This document shows, piece by piece, positions 385-6,932 of a stretch of DNA of 6,932 nucleotides. Under the pieces are notes generated by a model that saw only the letters and a list, made by a program, of their open reading frames with translations, had not been told where the DNA came from and did no database searches. Positions within the stretch are counted from its first letter, which is position 1; every line of letters begins with the position of its first letter. The position numbers and the translations under genes are program-made. Source of the stretch: PVC group bacterium (GTDB lineage: Bacteria; GCA-001730085; JADFSZ01); the NCBI GenBank assembly GCA_022560555.1, contig JADFSZ010000092.1, forward strand, positions 1-6,932. The letters run 5' to 3'.

Positions 385-2565
385 TCATGTCCCAACCACG
401 ATTTGGCGAAAATCAATCATTTCCACGAAAGTACGGCTGTTTTTCTCAAGAAGGGCAAGCCGGTTTTTTTTCAATACTTCATTGGGGGACATAACGAGGA
501 CTTCATCAAAAAAATCATCAACAAGAGGCCTCAGCGATACCAGAGCCCCAAGTGCATCATAATAATTTCTATCGCGATAGGCTTTTTCGACAGGTGTTTT
601 CACTTTTTCATACTCATTCCAGAGAATCTTTTCTTGGGAATCTTCTAACAGAGAATCACTAAACGGATGCGTTTCATGCGAGTGTTCCTGGTCTAACCAT
701 CCGGCTTGTTTGAGAATATTAGTGACCCGTGAAAATGTGGTCGTTATGGATTTAAAATCTTCCGGCTTTTCTCGGCTGAACCGGTTAACATCACTGGCAA
801 TTTTCATGATTTTGTGAATATTTAAACTCAAACGCTCCGCTTGACACACGGCCCGCGCTATGTCATAACGGATCCCCTCCTGAGTCAAAACAAATTCAAT
901 CCGGTCAAAGAGAAAATCCCGAATCCTGTTTTGCATGTTCGAATTGGGCACACCAGGAATTTTTGTCAAAGCACCGAACAAAGAAAAATCAAATTCGAAT
1001 TTTTGGGCAATTTTGATCAGTCCTGCCCCTTGACGCCGCAGGGCATAAGGATCTTTCGATCCCGTCACGATGATACCCGCTTCAAAACAATTCGCGATTG
1101 TATCCAGTTTATCCGCAAAAGATAAAACGGCCCCTATTTTTGAATCCGGTAAAGCATCCTCGGAAAAGCGAGGCAAATAATGTTCTCTTATCGCTTCAGC
1201 CGCAGCCGGGGCCTCTTTATCAAACAAAGCATATTCTTTTCCCATTTGCCCTTGAAGATCAGGAAACTCCCCCACCATATGCGTGACAAGATCCGCCTTA
1301 GAAAGCACGGAGGCTCTCAGAAGTGTTCCTAGTTCACCTGAGGATAATTTGAGATTTTCAGCCATCAGCTTACACACATCACTCACATGCTCCTGTTTGT
1401 CAAAATACGATATTTTCGTTTCCTTTAAGAAAACTACGTTTTTAAGCTTTTCGCTTTTATCAGCCAGCGTTGTTTTTGTGTCTTCATGAAAGAAAAATTC
1501 CGCGTCGGACAATCGAGCGGCTAATACTTTTTCGTTCCCCTTCACAATGCCTCCCGAGGCACCCTTGGCAACACCATTAGCCACAAAAACAAATTTTGGC
1601 AAAAGTTTTCCTTTTTTATCATGAAGCGGAAAATATCTCTGATGAGATTTCATCGCGCTCTCAAGAACACACCCGGGAAGCTCGAGAAACCGTTTATGAA
1701 ATGTTCCTGTGAGCACCACCGGATGTTCTACAAGGTTAGCAACCTCGTCTATCAAAGCCTCATCAAATGATACATTCCCCTGACTGTGTTTTTTAAGTCC
1801 TTTCACAATGATGCTTTTTCGTTCTTCAAAATCAACAATGACTCCTGCCGCTTTCATCTTTTTTTTGTATTGATGGATATTGGCTTCAGTGAGCCGGACT
1901 ATTGGCGTACGTCCCTTCAAAAACCGGTGCCCATAAGAAATCCGTCCTGATTTGACTTTTCCTATCGAAAAGTTAATCACCTTTTTGTCCAGCAAGGCTA
2001 CGACGGAACGAATCGGACGCGCAAAACGAATCAAGTTATTCGGATCCCAACGCATACTCTTTGGAAATTTCAGATTCAATATCCAATTTTGGATGATGTC
2101 CGGGAGAACTTTTTGTGCCGATTGCCCCTTGTCAGGAGGACAATCATAAAAGAGATGTTCCCGTCCGTTTCTATTCTTATAAGAGAGCTCTGCCGGGGAA
2201 ACATTAAGAGACTTCGCAAAACCAAGGGCCGCTTTGGTCCAGCTTCCGTTTTCATCGCACGCCTTATCTTTAGCAGGACCAAAAAGACCCGGGGAAACTA
2301 GTTCGGTTTGATGCAATAGAATATCTTTGACAAAAACCACAATCCGCCTCGGCGTGGCGCAAACAATCACGTCATTCGCCTTGAAAGGCTCGCTTCTTAG
2401 GCGTCCTTTTGGCGGAGCAAGATCGGACATAACCGTTCGTTCCTTTAAGAAATACTGGAGGAAGGCTTCATCAATATAGCCGGCGGGTAACTCTTCCGTG
2501 CCTATTTCCAAAAGCAAGTTGCTTGTTTTTTTATTGGTTTTTGACGTTTTTTTCTTTTTTTTCAC
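385..2565 (-). CDS. glyS: glycine--tRNA ligase beta subunit
   Basis: The ORF 385..2643 translation matches bacterial GlyRS-beta along its full length. Recognised motifs are [99 protein letters not shown] and NRLALLEK. The TGA stop is at 385..387. The start is ambiguous. I place it at GTG 2565..2563, which has AAAGG 8 nt upstream and overlaps glyQ by 35 nt. Alternatives are TTG 2571, TTG 2517 (giving [11 protein letters not shown], with no SD) and ATG 2643 (a 113-nt overlap, which I reject). Confidence 0.9.
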
Positions 2566-3406
2566 TCTCAAAACCTTTGCAATATTTTTCGGCACATTGG
2601 ATGGCCAGTTTCCGAATGCGCGCAATATATCCGACTCGCTCATTCACACTGATCGCCTTTCGGGCATCCAAGATATTAAAAGCGTGAGAACATTTTAAAA
2701 CATAGTCATAGGCCGGCCTCACAAGCCCCTTAAGAAGACACTGTCCGGCTTCTTTTTCAAACTGATCAAATGTTTCAAAATGCATCTTTACATCAGCAAC
2801 TTCAAAGCTATATTGAGAAAATTCTCTTTCGGCCTGATGGAAAATATCCCTATAGCGAAACATTTTGTTATAGGCAAGATCATAAACATTATCGACATCC
2901 TGCAAGAACATGGCGATCCGTTCCAGTCCATACGTCAGCTCCACGGAAATGGGATAAAGCTCAATCCCTCCGACCTGCTGAAAATAGGTAAACTGTGTGA
3001 CCTCCATGCCATCCAGCCAGACCTCCCACCCAAGACCCGTTGCGCCCAATGTCGGCGACTCCCAATCATCCTCGACAAAGCGTACATCATGCTTTTTAAA
3101 ATCAACGCCCATAGCCTTTAAGCTGTTTAAGTATATATCCTGGATATTTTCGGGTGAGGGTTTGATGATCACTTGAAACTGATGATGCTGATAGAGCCGA
3201 TTAGGATTGTCGCCGTAACGGCCATCGGTAGGTCTCCTGCAAGGTTCGACATAAGCCATTTGTGTCGGATGGGGCCCAAGAACACCAAAAAATGTCGCGG
3301 GGTTAAACGTCCCGGCTCCTGTTTCGACATCATAGGGCTGGCGAATGATACAGCCATAGCGGCCCCAATATTCTTGTAGTCTGAGAATAATATCTTGAAA
3401 AAACAT
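2531..3406 (-). CDS. glyQ: glycine--tRNA ligase alpha subunit
   Basis: The 291-aa translation is near-collinear with E. coli GlyQ. Shared blocks are [96 protein letters not shown], and [22 protein letters not shown]. The ATG is at 3406..3404 and the TAA at 2533..2531. Confidence 0.96.
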
Positions 3407-3597: not shown

Positions 3598-5301
3598 CTA
3601 TTTTGACTCTTTATTCTCAACATCCTCAATTGTGCCAACACAGTTTTTGCCCAATTCTTTGGCTTTATACAAACCTTCATCGGCTCTTTTAAGAACAGTC
3701 TCTTCATCATCCCCGACACGAAAACATGCTATTCCGATACTAGTGGTTATATTGAATACCTGACGACCATCTGAAATTTTATGCCTTTCTATATTCTTTC
3801 TCAGCTTTTCTGCAGCAATGAGCCCCCCTTTCAAAGCCGTCCATCTTAAAATAATGGTCATCTCGTCACCACCATATCTTGCTACCATATCCATAGTCCG
3901 CACTGTTCCCTTGATAATACCCGCAACCTCATTCAAAACAACATTCCCAACCCCGTGTCCGAACGTATCGTTAATATGCTTAAAATTGTCTATATCCATC
4001 ATGATAATGCAAAATGTTCTATTGGTTTCGGTCATTGCTTTTGAACACTCATCTCGGAGCGCAATTTTTAAAAACCTCATATTATAGAGTCCGGTAAGCT
4101 CGTCATTCATGGATAAGTCAAAAAAGCGCTTTTTTTCTATGGCCACATGCAGGAGATTGTAGACATTGATGGCCGAATAGCTTCCAAACAAAGCCACTAT
4201 AGGCATAGAACAATCCATCCATATTCCCCTCATGAACAAGGTGAATGAAGCCGCGAAAAAAACAGGGATTGAAATAAAAACGCCTATCATTTCTCTTAGC
4301 GGCTTCTCTCCTTTGGCTGAAATGGACGGCAGGAAGGCAAACAGATATATCAAAATGGTTGTCAACCACAGAGGGCTTTTTTTAATGAAATCTTGATTGA
4401 GAATATTATCAATCGTATTCGCAATGACACCGACCGCAGGGTATTCCGGCTCCAGAGGAATCGGCTTAATATCATGAAGGCCTATGCCGGTTGGACCAAC
4501 CAGGCAAATGCTATCCTTAAAATATTCGTTCTCTTTGGTATACGTTCCGCTGTCCTGAGAAGCTGCGTATAGATTTAATACTTCCAAAAAAGAGTAGTGG
4601 CGATAAGTTGTTTTCCAGCCACCCCTCCAATTTATGAGCATCTCATTATTTTTCAGGAAAGGTATTTTTATCTTTTGCGAACTACTAGCAAGAGCAAGGA
4701 AATCTTTACCAATTCGCTTAACGGCTAAACCCTGGTAATCCATTGCTATCTGTAAAGCCACATGATAATGCAGCTTCCTTGCCCCCATAAAAATCAAAGG
4801 TACTTTTCGCAAAATACCGTCGATATCGGGATAGATATTGATCGAACCCGCGCCTTTTAAATGTTTAAGGAACTTTTTTATGGGAAACAGGATCTCAACG
4901 TCCCCCTTTGCGGATTCGCGTTGACGAACGAAAGGGAGATAAACGTTGCCGGCTTGTTTAATCGATTCGCTAAAGAGGTCGTCTTGCTCTTGGGTAGATT
5001 GTTCGGAAAAAATAATGTCAAAAAATATACTTTTTGCGCCCAGTCCTTTTAATGCCTGGACAGCGGCGGCAAACCACTTACGATCCCACGGCCATTGTCC
5101 TATCTTTTGTATATTTTCATCATCAATCTCAATAATAATGATTCTGTGATCGTAAGGCTGGGGGCCTCTCAGGTGAAAAAAACTGTCTAAGACACCCTTC
5201 TCGAGACGTTGTAAAAGGTTCCCGCTGGAAAAAACCAGCACCAACGAGGACACAGACAGGGCTATTGCATAATTGATAAGTTTATATCGACTTAGTTTCA
5301 A
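3598..5301 (-). CDS. CHASE2 sensor domain-containing GGDEF (diguanylate cyclase family) membrane protein
   Basis: The protein is 567 aa. Its layout is: N-terminal TM (INYAIALSVSSLVLVFSS); a CHASE2-type extracytoplasmic region at about aa 27-310 (nt ~4372..5223) with the hallmark RIIIIEIDDENIQKIGQWPWDRKWFAAAVQAL...GAKSIFFDIIF; three TM helices at aa 311-385; and a cytoplasmic GGDEF domain at about aa 398-556 (nt ~3634..4110). GGDEF motifs seen are DELTGLYNMRF, DIDNFKHINDTFGH, an RxxD I-site (RTMD, 3889..3900), RYGGDEM (the GGDEM pentapeptide spans 3859..3873), and KRADEGLYKAK. The start is TTG 5301..5299, the only canonical start after an in-frame TGA. The TAG stop is at 3598..3600. Confidence 0.9.
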   Translation of the reverse strand: MKLSRYKLINYAIALSVSSLVLVFSSGNLLQRLEKGVLDSFFHLRGPQPYDHRIIIIEIDDENIQKIGQWPWDRKWFAAAVQALKGLGAKSIFFDIIFSEQSTQEQDDLFSESIKQAGNVYLPFVRQRESAKGDVEILFPIKKFLKHLKGAGSINIYPDIDGILRKVPLIFMGARKLHYHVALQIAMDYQGLAVKRIGKDFLALASSSQKIKIPFLKNNEMLINWRGGWKTTYRHYSFLEVLNLYAASQDSGTYTKENEYFKDSICLVGPTGIGLHDIKPIPLEPEYPAVGVIANTIDNILNQDFIKKSPLWLTTILIYLFAFLPSISAKGEKPLREMIGVFISIPVFFAASFTLFMRGIWMDCSMPIVALFGSYSAINVYNLLHVAIEKKRFFDLSMNDELTGLYNMRFLKIALRDECSKAMTETNRTFCIIMMDIDNFKHINDTFGHGVGNVVLNEVAGIIKGTVRTMDMVARYGGDEMTIILRWTALKGGLIAAEKLRKNIERHKISDGRQVFNITTSIGIACFRVGDDEETVLKRADEGLYKAKELGKNCVGTIEDVENKESK

Positions 5302-5303
5302 TA

Positions 5304-5777
5304 CTATTCCAATGCCTCGACTTCAACAGAAAAGGTTGTTCCTCTCACACCCACAACAGATGTCGGCGTTTTGATCTCAAACTTTGAATTCTCATTATGC
5401 AGTTCTTTTGCCCTGATCAAAACTTTACCGATAGCTAGATCCAGCAACGTTGTCTGGGCACCATCCTTGTCATCCGTCATAAGCTCCAAAATCAAGAGCT
5501 GGGAGTTCTCACTTATCTCAATTTCAGAAGTCTCGCCTGATCCGTTCAGGATGATCAGGGCGAAAGATTTTGATTTGGTTTTTATAATATCACCTTGATT
5601 AAGAATCATATTTTTTTGGACAGGAACCCAATTTTCCTGACCGGAGAGTTTCGCTTCCACCTCCCCCTCAAGCTCAACAACCTTTGCGACACGCGGAATC
5701 TCTTTAGAATATGCCTGTGAAGACATAATCATGACAAATACTGCCATGCAAATATACGTGAAAATCTTCATCTTCAT
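5304..5777 (-). CDS. secreted FecR-domain protein
   Basis: The protein is 157 aa. It has a Sec-type signal peptide (MKMKIFTYICMAVFVMIMSSQAYS/KE) followed by a single FecR-like beta-sandwich pattern: G.VE......W.PV.....L..GD.I.T...S.A.I.L......I......L......., then L..G.VLIR......KFEIKTP.SVVGVRGTTFSVE. The ATG at 5777 has a strong SD (GGAGGTGG) 3 nt upstream. The TAG stop is at 5304..5306. Confidence 0.85.
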   Translation of the reverse strand: MKMKIFTYICMAVFVMIMSSQAYSKEIPRVAKVVELEGEVEAKLSGQENWVPVQKNMILNQGDIIKTKSKSFALIILNGSGETSEIEISENSQLLILELMTDDKDGAQTTLLDLAIGKVLIRAKELHNENSKFEIKTPTSVVGVRGTTFSVEVEALE

Positions 5778-5866: not shown

Positions 5867-6932
5867 TTAATCGACAACACCTTCCCGTGTCGTCGAATTC
5901 TGCAGCTCCGGTGTAAGCACCGTCTCTTTTTCGTCATCAGGCCCGTTTTCATCATACGGGGCCTCGACAACCTTCCCTTCATAAATGATGATAACCGTTC
6001 TGTATTTAGCATGAATGTAACGCTTCTTCCATTTTTTACCATCTTTATAGTCGATAATAAAATAATCTTTTTCGCTTCGAGACTCTGTTCCTCTTGATAT
6101 TATCATTGTCTTGGAACCCGCGTCATATGACACCGTAACTTCGGATTCTGTTTCAAAAAGCGCAGCAAAAGACGTCTGTACATCTTCCAATGTATCTTCA
6201 TAGCTCGGGCTTGAGGCGTCACCAAGCAGGGCTATGACCTCAGGAATAAGTATCTCCGGTAATTCCGGAACAACAGGCGCGCTCCCCCCAAAATTCCAAT
6301 TCAGATTGCTTCCGCCGTCAAAACTACCCATGGAGGCATCTATAAGTAATCCTCCTGATGCGTCCGAGAAAGATACGCTGACATTATCGGCCGTCGCCAG
6401 TGCACCATTAATGATAAATATCCAGTCCGCTGTGGCATTCAACGCAAGCAAGTCCCCTACTTCACCGGTAAGAGCTAGATCTCCCCCTACTGTGATCGTT
6501 GTGCCGTTCATGGCATCGGCATCCGCTATCACTTGGCTGTCTGTCCCCATCGTAAAGTTTCCTGTGGTTTCGATGGTTTGACCATTAAAGTCTATTGTCC
6601 CGTTTTGGGCATCAAACAAGCCGCTCGTAAAACCACCCGTCAATTGTTTCGTGTCTCCAGGCGCGTTGATGATAAGATCTCCGAGAGTCTTGTTGGCAAA
6701 GCTGATCGTCTGCGTACCGTCAGATGCGTTGTTGCCAAGGGTCATTGTTGAATTCGTCACAGTCAACGTGTCAAGATTTTGAAAATCAACGTTCCCCGCA
6801 ACACTCATAATATCATTGGATATATCCAGTGTGACAGCATCAGCTGCATCCGCACCGATTGTAAAAGCACCGCTCAGCGTGAAATTATCCGTTGTTGTCA
6901 AAGAAAAAGTTTCGCCGCCACCGGCATCGGAT
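5867..6932 (-). CDS. C-terminal part of a large beta-helix-like repeat exoprotein or adhesin-like protein (5' end lies outside the window)
   Basis: The frame stays open from the window edge: SDAGGGETFS precedes the TTG that the track shows as 'M' at 6901. The true start is therefore upstream of the window. Residues up to about 6284 are Gly/Thr/Asp/Asn/Ala-rich, with short alternating beta-strand-like segments (TLSGAFTIGADAADAVTLDISNDIMSVAGNVDF, TIDFNGQTIETTGNFTMG, TTITVGGDLALTG). This region ends in GGSNLNWNFGG (6284..6316), a motif I recognise as closing beta-helix passenger-type modules. A compositionally different C-terminal region of about 138 aa follows. The TAA stop is at 5867..5869. 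Confidence 0.75.
   Translation of the reverse strand, partial: SDAGGGETFSLTTTDNFTLSGAFTIGADAADAVTLDISNDIMSVAGNVDFQNLDTLTVTNSTMTLGNNASDGTQTISFANKTLGDLIINAPGDTKQLTGGFTSGLFDAQNGTIDFNGQTIETTGNFTMGTDSQVIADADAMNGTTITVGGDLALTGEVGDLLALNATADWIFIINGALATADNVSVSFSDASGGLLIDASMGSFDGGSNLNWNFGGSAPVVPELPEILIPEVIALLGDASSPSYEDTLEDVQTSFAALFETESEVTVSYDAGSKTMIISRGTESRSEKDYFIIDYKDGKKWKKRYIHAKYRTVIIIYEGKVVEAPYDENGPDDEKETVLTPELQNSTTREGVVD

Follow-up and report, generated by a model that had tools for sequence, protein, structure and literature searches.

Asparagine at the nucleobase selectivity position of an Omnitrophota CHASE2-GGDEF protein, a member of a wider class of Asn-type GGDEF domains

The stretch of DNA analysed in this study (the window) comprises the 6,932 nucleotides of contig JADFSZ010000092.1 from a PVC group bacterium (assembly GCA_022560555.1). 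Its minus strand encodes a CHASE2-GGDEF protein of 567 residues in which both guanine-specific contacts of canonical diguanylate cyclases are replaced, the carboxylate of PleD Asp344 by Asn453 and the base-stacking cross-dimer Arg by Met408. As judged from its sequence, the protein fits neither the canonical diguanylate cyclases (no Asp344, no cross-dimer Arg) nor the Hypr enzymes (no Ser or Thr at the selectivity position). It is a member of a wider class of GGDEF domains, designated Asn-type, for which no characterisation was found in the literature searched. We tentatively favour, at a little short of an even chance, the reading that the protein would be an active cyclase producing mainly cyclic di-GMP (c-di-GMP) with weakened discrimination for guanine. 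The gene, its domains and the residues under discussion are located as follows.

3598..5301, minus strand: gene of the predicted CHASE2-GGDEF membrane sensor cyclase, 567 residues, TTG start as listed (open reading frame (ORF) list and Pfam)
4339..5244, minus strand: CHASE2 extracytoplasmic sensor domain, residues 20-321 (Pfam PF05226, 183.6 bits, 6.8e-54)
3643..4107, minus strand: GGDEF catalytic domain, residues 399-553 (Pfam PF00990, 2.8e-41; TIGR00254)
4078..4080, minus strand: M408 (ATG), the cross-dimer position, equivalent to PleD R300, Idiomarina R537 and GacA Y304 (alignment and residue counting)
3988..3996, minus strand: D436-I-D438 metal-binding motif (PleD D327), invariant in the family (alignment)
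3970..3972, minus strand: N444, sugar-edge base contact (PleD N335, GacA N339) (alignment)
3943..3945, minus strand: N453 (AAT), the nucleobase selectivity position (PleD D344, GacA S348) (HMMER alignment)
3889..3900, minus strand: R468-T-M-D471, the RxxD allosteric I-site, separated from the signature by a linker of five residues (R 98% and D 98% in the family)
3859..3873, minus strand: GGDEM signature, residues 477-481 (alignment)
3646..3660, minus strand: K548 (PleD K442) and K552 (PleD R446 position), phosphate contacts (alignment)

Both profiles of the GGDEF domain matched the 567-residue protein above their curated cut-offs (141.4 bits against 23.8 for PF00990 and 167.6 bits against 37.4 for TIGR00254). 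Hydrophobic segments read off the translation lie at about residues 7-29 and 311-388, and the predicted arrangement is that of a CHASE2 sensor, with an N-terminal membrane helix, the CHASE2 domain, C-terminal membrane helices and a cytoplasmic output domain. HMMER alignments to chains in the PDB are free of gaps from the DxD motif to the signature and place Asn453 in the column of PleD Asp344, in agreement with the original prediction, which had also located the AAT codon (3945..3943) and the GGDEM signature (3873..3859) correctly and had noted that the 24 residues separating the selectivity residue from the first Gly of the signature reproduce the spacing in PleD. An AlphaFold2 model of residues 395-567 (mean predicted local distance difference test score 95) superimposes on PleD (2wb4) with a template modelling (TM) score of 0.89 and a root mean square deviation of 1.5 Å, and on GacA (6d9m) with a TM score of 0.86. 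Asn453 lies in the helix formed by model residues 55-72, the counterpart of α2, and the structure-aware comparison with PleD and GacA leaves it in the Asp344 column. In the pair that reads guanine in PleD, Asn335 is kept as Asn444 and Asp344 is replaced. The turn at residues 407-409, which reads NMR in place of NRR, had been noted only in passing, but it holds the second determinant of Hypr specificity, the cross-dimer residue Met408.

The active site had been described as intact, and this holds for the DID motif (residues 436-438), Asn444, the acidic pair of GGDE, the KRAD sequence and the RTMD I-site; the equivalent of PleD Arg446, on the other hand, is Lys552. Lys is likewise present at this position in GacA, which has GKN rather than GRN. 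Glu480 corresponds to the signature Glu to which the role of general base has been assigned (PMC6456294). Unlike degenerate receptor domains, the protein has not lost the acidic pair of GG(D/E)E, the metal-binding Asp or other catalytic residues, and the GGDEF domain is predicted to be catalytically competent. As regards the fifth residue of the signature, DgcP of Bacillus subtilis, for which synthesis of c-di-GMP has been reported, has GGEEL (PMC5422440), and enzymes with GGDEM are listed as diguanylate cyclases in a review (PMC8402453).

PleD-type enzymes (PleD, 1W25, 2V0N and 2WB4; the Idiomarina phytochrome diguanylate cyclase, 5LLX) share with the window protein the overall fold, at 40% identity, together with the DxD motif, the Asn335 equivalent, GG(D/E)E, the Lys442 equivalent, the RxxD I-site and an ungapped spacing of the motifs. 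The differences from PleD are Asn453 for Asp344, Met408 for Arg300, Lys552 for Arg446 and Met as the fifth signature residue; in addition, the input domain is a CHASE2 transmembrane sensor, whereas that of PleD consists of Rec domains. Like the window protein, the Hypr enzymes (GacA, 5VS9 and 6D9M; Bdellovibrio Bd0367) lack Asp at the selectivity position and Arg at the cross-dimer position; they also share its third signature residue (Asp), its GKN sequence and its retained I-site. They are defined by Ser or Thr at the selectivity position with exclusively GGDE[F/Y] signatures, and those that produce cyclic GMP-AMP (cGAMP) have Tyr, Ser, Ala or Gln at the cross-dimer position (PMC6456294). 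In contrast, the window protein has Asn and Met at these two positions and a signature that ends in Met rather than Phe or Tyr, and it is a CHASE2 transmembrane protein of Omnitrophota, whereas the Hypr proteins have a Rec-GGDEF architecture and the named enzymes come from Geobacter and Bdellovibrio. The cross-dimer Arg occurs in 94% of the enzymes predicted to be diguanylate cyclases, where it stacks on the guanine that the opposite monomer binds, and is replaced in Hypr enzymes; the Y304R substitution skews GacA to c-di-GMP, and Asp at position 348 and Arg at position 304 have been found experimentally to bias this enzyme toward guanine (PMC6456294). The route proposed from a diguanylate cyclase to a cGAMP synthase starts from GGDEF rather than GGEEF and proceeds by R304Y and D348S in any order (PMC6456294).

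These comparisons bear on an alternative that we consider possible, if on the whole doubtful, namely that the protein is a promiscuous cyclase of Hypr-like character that would accept ATP as well as GTP and make substantial amounts of 3',3'-cGAMP, c-di-AMP or both where ATP exceeds GTP. All three steps of the published route have been taken in kind (Asp479, Met408 and Asn453), with Asn and Met in place of Ser and Tyr; the best match of the protein in a PDB sequence search is GacA (6d9m, 8.5e-35), above PleD (1.3e-32), and Lys552 matches the GKN sequence of GacA. The chemistry is plausible in that an Asn amide able to flip could read either purine, its oxygen accepting from adenine N6-H or guanine N1-H and its NH2 group donating to adenine N1 or guanine O6. 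However, Asn is neither Ser nor Thr, and no biochemical data on Asn at this position were found in the literature searched. The original prediction knew of no characterised Asn variant, and our literature searches gave none, although counts of Asn may be given in Hallberg et al. 2016; searches for D344N, S347N and S348N returned nothing relevant, and reviews of 2020, 2023 and 2026 mention only Ser as a variant at the selectivity position. An Rfam scan of the window also yielded no c-di-GMP or cGAMP (GEMM-type) riboswitch or other RNA family, and no other cGAMP component is present in the window; a riboswitch of this kind does not, however, belong to the definition of the Hypr class.

The window protein belongs to a family of about 160 homologues (clusters at 90% identity), all from Candidatus Omnitrophota, with 33-52% identity and the same length and architecture; residue counts were taken from 119 of them. 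Members such as P0005 and P0044 are annotated as "diguanylate cyclase" or "CHASE2 domain-containing protein". A collection of 5.8 billion sequences contains no protein identical, or nearly so, to that of the window. The Met of the GGDEM signature had been thought unusual, but it is the norm in the family, where the signature is GGEEM in 93 of the 119 homologues, GGEEI in 13 and GGEEF in 7. The unusual residue is Asp479, since this position is Glu in 94% of the family and Asp in only five homologues. The selectivity column contains Asp in 117/119 homologues (96% in a separately aligned set of the family), the two others being P0004 (Asn, GGEEM) and P0029 (Ser, GGEEF). The cross-dimer position is occupied by Ile (93 homologues), Val (15) or Met (7) and never by Arg, and the Arg446 position is Arg in 93% of the family. 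Of the GGDEF-domain columns with a family conservation of 90% or more, only five are changed in the window protein (F411L, Y447F, D453N, E479D and R552K), and three of the five line the nucleotide site. The protein shares with the family the FecR-domain neighbour, the hydrophobic nature of the cross-dimer residue and a fifth signature residue that is Met or Ile, and departs from the family majority in the Asp453, Glu479 and Arg552 columns. Taken as a whole, the family is itself a non-canonical group of Asp-type domains in which a hydrophobic cross-dimer residue is combined with, usually, GGEEM. Three members, P0001-P0003 (713-730 residues), are about 150 residues longer than the others, and in P0003 the GGDEF domain of the query was matched by HMMER in two stretches, which suggests an additional C-terminal GGDEF-like domain.

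In a neighbour-joining tree, the window protein forms a clade with P0004, P0023 and P0029 (bootstrap 96/100; 47-54% identity among the four sequences), the internal order of which is not resolved by the tree. The selectivity residue varies within this clade.

Window protein: selectivity residue Asn, codon AAT
P0004: selectivity residue Asn, codon AAT, from an independent assembly
P0023: selectivity residue Asp, codon GAT
P0029: selectivity residue Ser, codon AGC, locus L325:101-1789

Asn is not conserved among the orthologues, a point that the original prediction had left to be checked: the clade reads Asn, Asn, Asp, Ser, whereas Asp is fixed outside it, and the nearest Asn-containing relative, P0004, has GGEEM, with GGEEF in P0029. 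A residue other than Asp is thus found in three of the four clade members as against 0 of about 115 homologues outside the clade. The Asn codon is a single-step intermediate between those of Asp (GAY) and Ser (AGY). All four members have Lys at the Arg446 position. In all four, the ratio of GGDEF to CHASE2 conservation is the lowest of the family (0.90-1.00 as compared with a median of 1.10), so that their GGDEF domains are unusually diverged relative to their CHASE2 domains. In P0029 the RxxD I-site has been lost and is replaced by ADAG, and its combination of Ser with GGEEF is predicted to be inactive by the Goldilocks model (PMC6456294). A profile search with the four clade sequences gave no further members, and a scan of metagenomes for closer orthologues gave only generic GGDEF domains among the matches listed. 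A tyrS gene lies downstream in the loci of P0004, P0023 and P0029, two of which also have a ShlB-type gene in common.

The Ser of P0029 (AGC, compared with AAT in the window) places a Hypr-type residue, one transition from Asn, within the clade, which favours the use of ATP as well as GTP, but P0029 has the Ser/GGEEF combination predicted to be inactive and P0004, the closest relative with Asn, has the GGEEM signature. The drift of the selectivity residue, the low conservation ratios and the state of P0029 would also be consistent with an impaired GGDEF domain on the way to becoming a sensor or receptor that signals through binding of c-di-GMP at the I-site or through binding of GTP. We regard this as improbable, since the window protein retains all family residues that are at least 90% conserved apart from the five substitutions, all of them conservative, and since Glu480, the DxD motif, Asn444 and Lys548 are intact. 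Domains with Asn and fully intact motifs are, moreover, found in many genera of several phyla, which indicates that an active site under long-term selection can carry Asn. That Asn453 stems from a mistake in sequencing or assembly, or from a private mutation that is deleterious, is very improbable indeed. A single G-to-A transition would convert the GAT codon of the family to AAT, and the protein is known from a single sequence with no identical entry in the database; however, the nearest relative has the same AAT codon in an independent assembly, two further substitutions in the active site (Asp479 and Lys552) accompany Asn453, and natural domains of the Asn type are numerous (at least 120 matches in the scan described below).

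The name Asn-type is used here for domains that have Asn in the selectivity column and keep the ND..GH..G and GG[DE]E framework intact. Motif scans were made with the pattern ND..GH..G[DN], 23 residues, GG[DE]E, and with a version restricted to Asn. The 150 best cluster representatives gave 291 GGDEF domains, of which 261 have Asp and 11 have Asn in the selectivity column, but only two of these 11 (2/219 representative domains) had an intact signature together with the Asn335 equivalent, the others being degenerate second domains; most Asn residues in the second domains of proteins with two GGDEF domains sit in degenerate signatures. The scan of viral contigs gave 100 distinct domains, 100/100 with Asp, and the version restricted to Asn matched one locus in the whole viral collection, as compared with at least 120 for Asp or Asn together. 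From the two representatives in 219, the absence of Asn from the 100 viral domains and the single viral match, we estimate that about 1% of GGDEF domains, or less, are of the Asn type and have an intact signature. When one genome per species was scanned, the Asn-only pattern gave at least 120 matches, and those among the matches listed come from Acidobacteriota, Gemmatimonadota, Collinsella, Bacillales, Nostoc, proteobacteria and Omnitrophota. Examples are the following.

L140/L166: Bacillales transmembrane-GAF-GGDEF
L152: Acidobacteriota HD_5-GAF-GGDEF-PilZ
L133: Collinsella GGDEF-PAS-GGDEF-EAL
L155/L126: Omnitrophota CHASE2-GGDEF

With the family of the window protein, the two Omnitrophota CHASE2-GGDEF proteins (L155 and L126) share no more than 27-32% identity, so that Asn arose there independently. 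The other Asn-type domains resemble the window protein in combining Asn and an intact framework with, mostly, a cross-dimer residue other than Arg; their sensor domains, on the other hand, are unrelated to its own, and at the cross-dimer position they usually have Tyr, Ala or Phe where it has Met. Asn is combined with Tyr and GGEEF in L140, with Ala and GGDEF in L152, and with Arg in the GGDEF-EAL proteins of Collinsella (L133) and Nostoc (L149). Domains of this type are found fused to EAL, PilZ and HD_5 modules. In Collinsella (L125, L131, L133, L160, L169, L179 and L181), two Asn-type GGDEF genes lie about 3 kb apart and encode a GGDEF-PAS-GGDEF-EAL protein (905 residues) and a GGDEF-PAS-GGDEF protein (509 residues); in both, Asn is in the N-terminal GGDEF domain, within an unusual HCND.FGH..GNRYIL motif. 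A large Acidobacteriota group has in common the motif FGHLEGN…YDYVARMGGDEF. The Acidobacteriaceae protein at L152:537-3326 has, according to Pfam, multiple transmembrane segments and HD_5 (HD-GYP-like), GAF, GGDEF and PilZ domains, with Ala at the cross-dimer position. An identification of the Bacillales transmembrane-GAF-GGDEF group (L140) as orthologues of DgcP was not established, as DgcP is described as soluble and has GGEEL, and a PDB sequence search with the L140 domain gave only known GGDEF structures, none closely related.

The third signature residue in 120 distinct Asn-type motifs among the matches listed is Asp in 77 and Glu in 43. The resulting GGDE/GGEE split of 64/36 is similar to that of the Asp-type domains (61/39, p = 0.68), for which a GGDEF/GGEEF split of 57/43 has been published (PMC6456294). 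The rule of exclusive GGDE[F/Y] signatures that applies to the Ser and Thr types is therefore inapplicable to the Asn-type class, which tolerates GGEEF (36%), as expected if Asn keeps the reach of Asp. A rule that Asn-type domains always have GGDEF, suggested by 23/23 sequences, was rejected because that sample was biased by words shared with the query and the unbiased scan gave 77 against 43. Among the proteins of a metagenomic sample with Ser at the selectivity position (P0150, P0155, P0159, P0165, P0217 and others), the signatures are GGDE[F/Y], and Met occupies the cross-dimer position in 6/10 of the Ser-type domains; these proteins look like Hypr-type enzymes.

A column-by-column comparison of 129 Asn-type with 343 Asp-type domains, the two samples being drawn from different collections, gave the cross-dimer position as the only strongly divergent column (Jensen-Shannon divergence 0.49, the next column having 0.21). 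Arg is present at this position in 90/96 (94%) of the Asp-type domains of the viral sample and 193/216 (89%) of those from the representatives, as compared with 25/114 (22%) of the Asn-type domains (loci L123-L242 of the genome contigs, set against L002-L121), in which the other residues include Tyr (29), Ala (21), Phe (14), Gln (6), Leu (5), Thr (4) and Met (3). The association of Asn with loss of Arg has a p value of 3e-28 in Fisher's exact test when counted by sequence; after single-linkage clustering at 45% identity, a crude grouping, the ratio of Arg to non-Arg clusters is 8:15 for the Asn type and 39:5 for the Asp type (p = 1e-5). Fusion to EAL was found in 14/25 domains with Asn and Arg, 3/89 with Asn and a residue other than Arg, and 12/90 of an Asp/Arg control. 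Families of Asp-type domains without the cross-dimer Arg do exist, among them the family of the window protein and a His-bearing group; one such His/GGEEF group dominates a metagenome-derived sample, which was left out of the controls.

Two readings fit this covariation. (i) Asp344 and the Arg of the partner subunit may form a charged pair around guanine that has been jointly replaced by a neutral pair, with c-di-GMP kept as the product. (ii) The covariation may mark a change of specificity as in the Hypr enzymes. For the latter, and for use of both purines by the window protein, it speaks that the residues that accompany Asn (Tyr, Ala, Phe or Gln) overlap with those of cGAMP-producing Hypr enzymes and that EAL partners are scarce in the group lacking Arg. 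On the other side, Asn-type domains do occur with EAL and PilZ partners, and in the window's own family a hydrophobic cross-dimer residue is found throughout, including in the Asp-type members.

The reading that we favour, an active enzyme making mainly c-di-GMP, draws on the domain assignments, the intact catalytic residues and the high-confidence GGDEF fold. It is further supported by a published precedent, since the change of Asp to Ser alone left GSU3350, a canonical GGDEF-type enzyme, a pure diguanylate cyclase (PMC6456294). The approximately 115 other members of the family are of the Asp type with a like architecture, and the three loci that were checked (P0005, P0044 and P0029) keep the FecR partner. 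The EAL, PilZ and HD_5 modules to which Asn-type domains are fused belong to c-di-GMP networks, and the Asp-like usage of the signature argues that these domains are sterically like those with Asp rather than like the Hypr domains with the short Ser. Several points weigh against this reading. Both guanine determinants validated in GacA, Asp at 348 and Arg at 304, are absent from the window protein; the single strongly covarying column speaks against Asn as a neutral substitute for Asp; and the scarcity of EAL among Asn-type domains lacking Arg and the divergence of the GGDEF domains within the clade point in the same direction. In GTPases, a change of Asp to Asn at the analogous guanine-reading position greatly weakens the binding of GTP.

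Under the favoured reading, the protein would be an inner-membrane cyclase with a CHASE2 sensor, co-transcribed with a small FecR-domain protein, in which a stimulus from outside the cytoplasm may control dimerisation of the cytoplasmic GGDEF domains and two molecules of GTP would be condensed to c-di-GMP. The amide oxygen of Asn453 could accept a hydrogen bond from guanine N1-H, and its NH2 group could donate to O6. Recognition of guanine should then be weaker and less exclusive than in enzymes with the Asp/Arg pair, which would raise the Michaelis constant for GTP and allow ATP to be tolerated to some extent.

No cyclic-dinucleotide synthases are more abundant in bacteria than the GGDEF enzymes, and the default annotation of nearly all of them is diguanylate cyclase. 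The Hypr class, defined by the selectivity and cross-dimer positions, is to our knowledge the only exception in product specificity. In the Asn-type class, the same two positions have changed together in many phyla, to Asn rather than to Ser or Thr at the first of them. If Asn-type enzymes accept ATP, GGDEF-based signalling by cGAMP or c-di-AMP would be far wider than thought and many annotations would be mistaken; should they prove to be ordinary diguanylate cyclases, the covariation would reveal a coupling of Asp and Arg across the dimer interface that is relevant to the catalytic mechanism. A bolder proposal, which we consider unlikely as a whole, is that Asn-type domains form a second natural specificity class that is independent of the Ser/Thr Hypr enzymes and phylogenetically far wider (Acidobacteriota, Bacillota, Gemmatimonadota, Omnitrophota and others), accepts ATP and makes 3',3'-cGAMP or c-di-AMP, with Asn (AAT) in the window's clade as a one-step intermediate between Asp (GAT) and Ser (AGC).

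The minus strand of the window has five genes in the ORF list, the CHASE2-GGDEF gene and the following four.

5867..6901, minus strand: upstream ORF of 344 residues with no Pfam match, its first two-thirds rich in Thr, Gly, Asp and Asn (ORF list, Pfam)
5304..5777, minus strand: FecR-domain protein of 157 residues, directly upstream of the CHASE2-GGDEF gene (Pfam FecR, 3.4e-10)
2531..3406, minus strand: glyQ (ORF list)
385..2643, minus strand: glyS (ORF list)

At its N terminus, the 157-residue FecR-domain protein has a hydrophobic segment of signal-like character. A FecR-domain gene of 154-157 residues adjoins the CHASE2-GGDEF gene in the window and at the loci of P0005 (upstream) and P0044 (downstream), and the C terminus of such a gene is visible upstream of P0029. 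The loci compared (window 5304..5777, minus strand; L323:4486-4950; L326:3932-4405; L325:3-95) have in common a C-terminal motif, RFEVKTPTSVVGVRGT, also given as RFEVKTPTSVVGVRGTxFxVEVE. The FecR-domain protein is probably a conserved sensor partner of the CHASE2-GGDEF family, and a secreted FecR-like partner together with the CHASE2 sensor cyclase is likely to form the functional unit. The C-terminal segment of the 344-residue ORF (YEGKVVEAPYDENGP) is homologous to a gene fragment (L001:2-121) directly upstream of P0004, and the true start of this ORF may be closer to the edge of the window. The listed glyS ORF, with its start at 2643, overlaps the end of glyQ by 113 nucleotides (2531..2643); because the Pfam match to the GlyS β subunit starts only at residue 43, the real start of glyS is probably further downstream and the overlap an artefact of listing the longest ORF.

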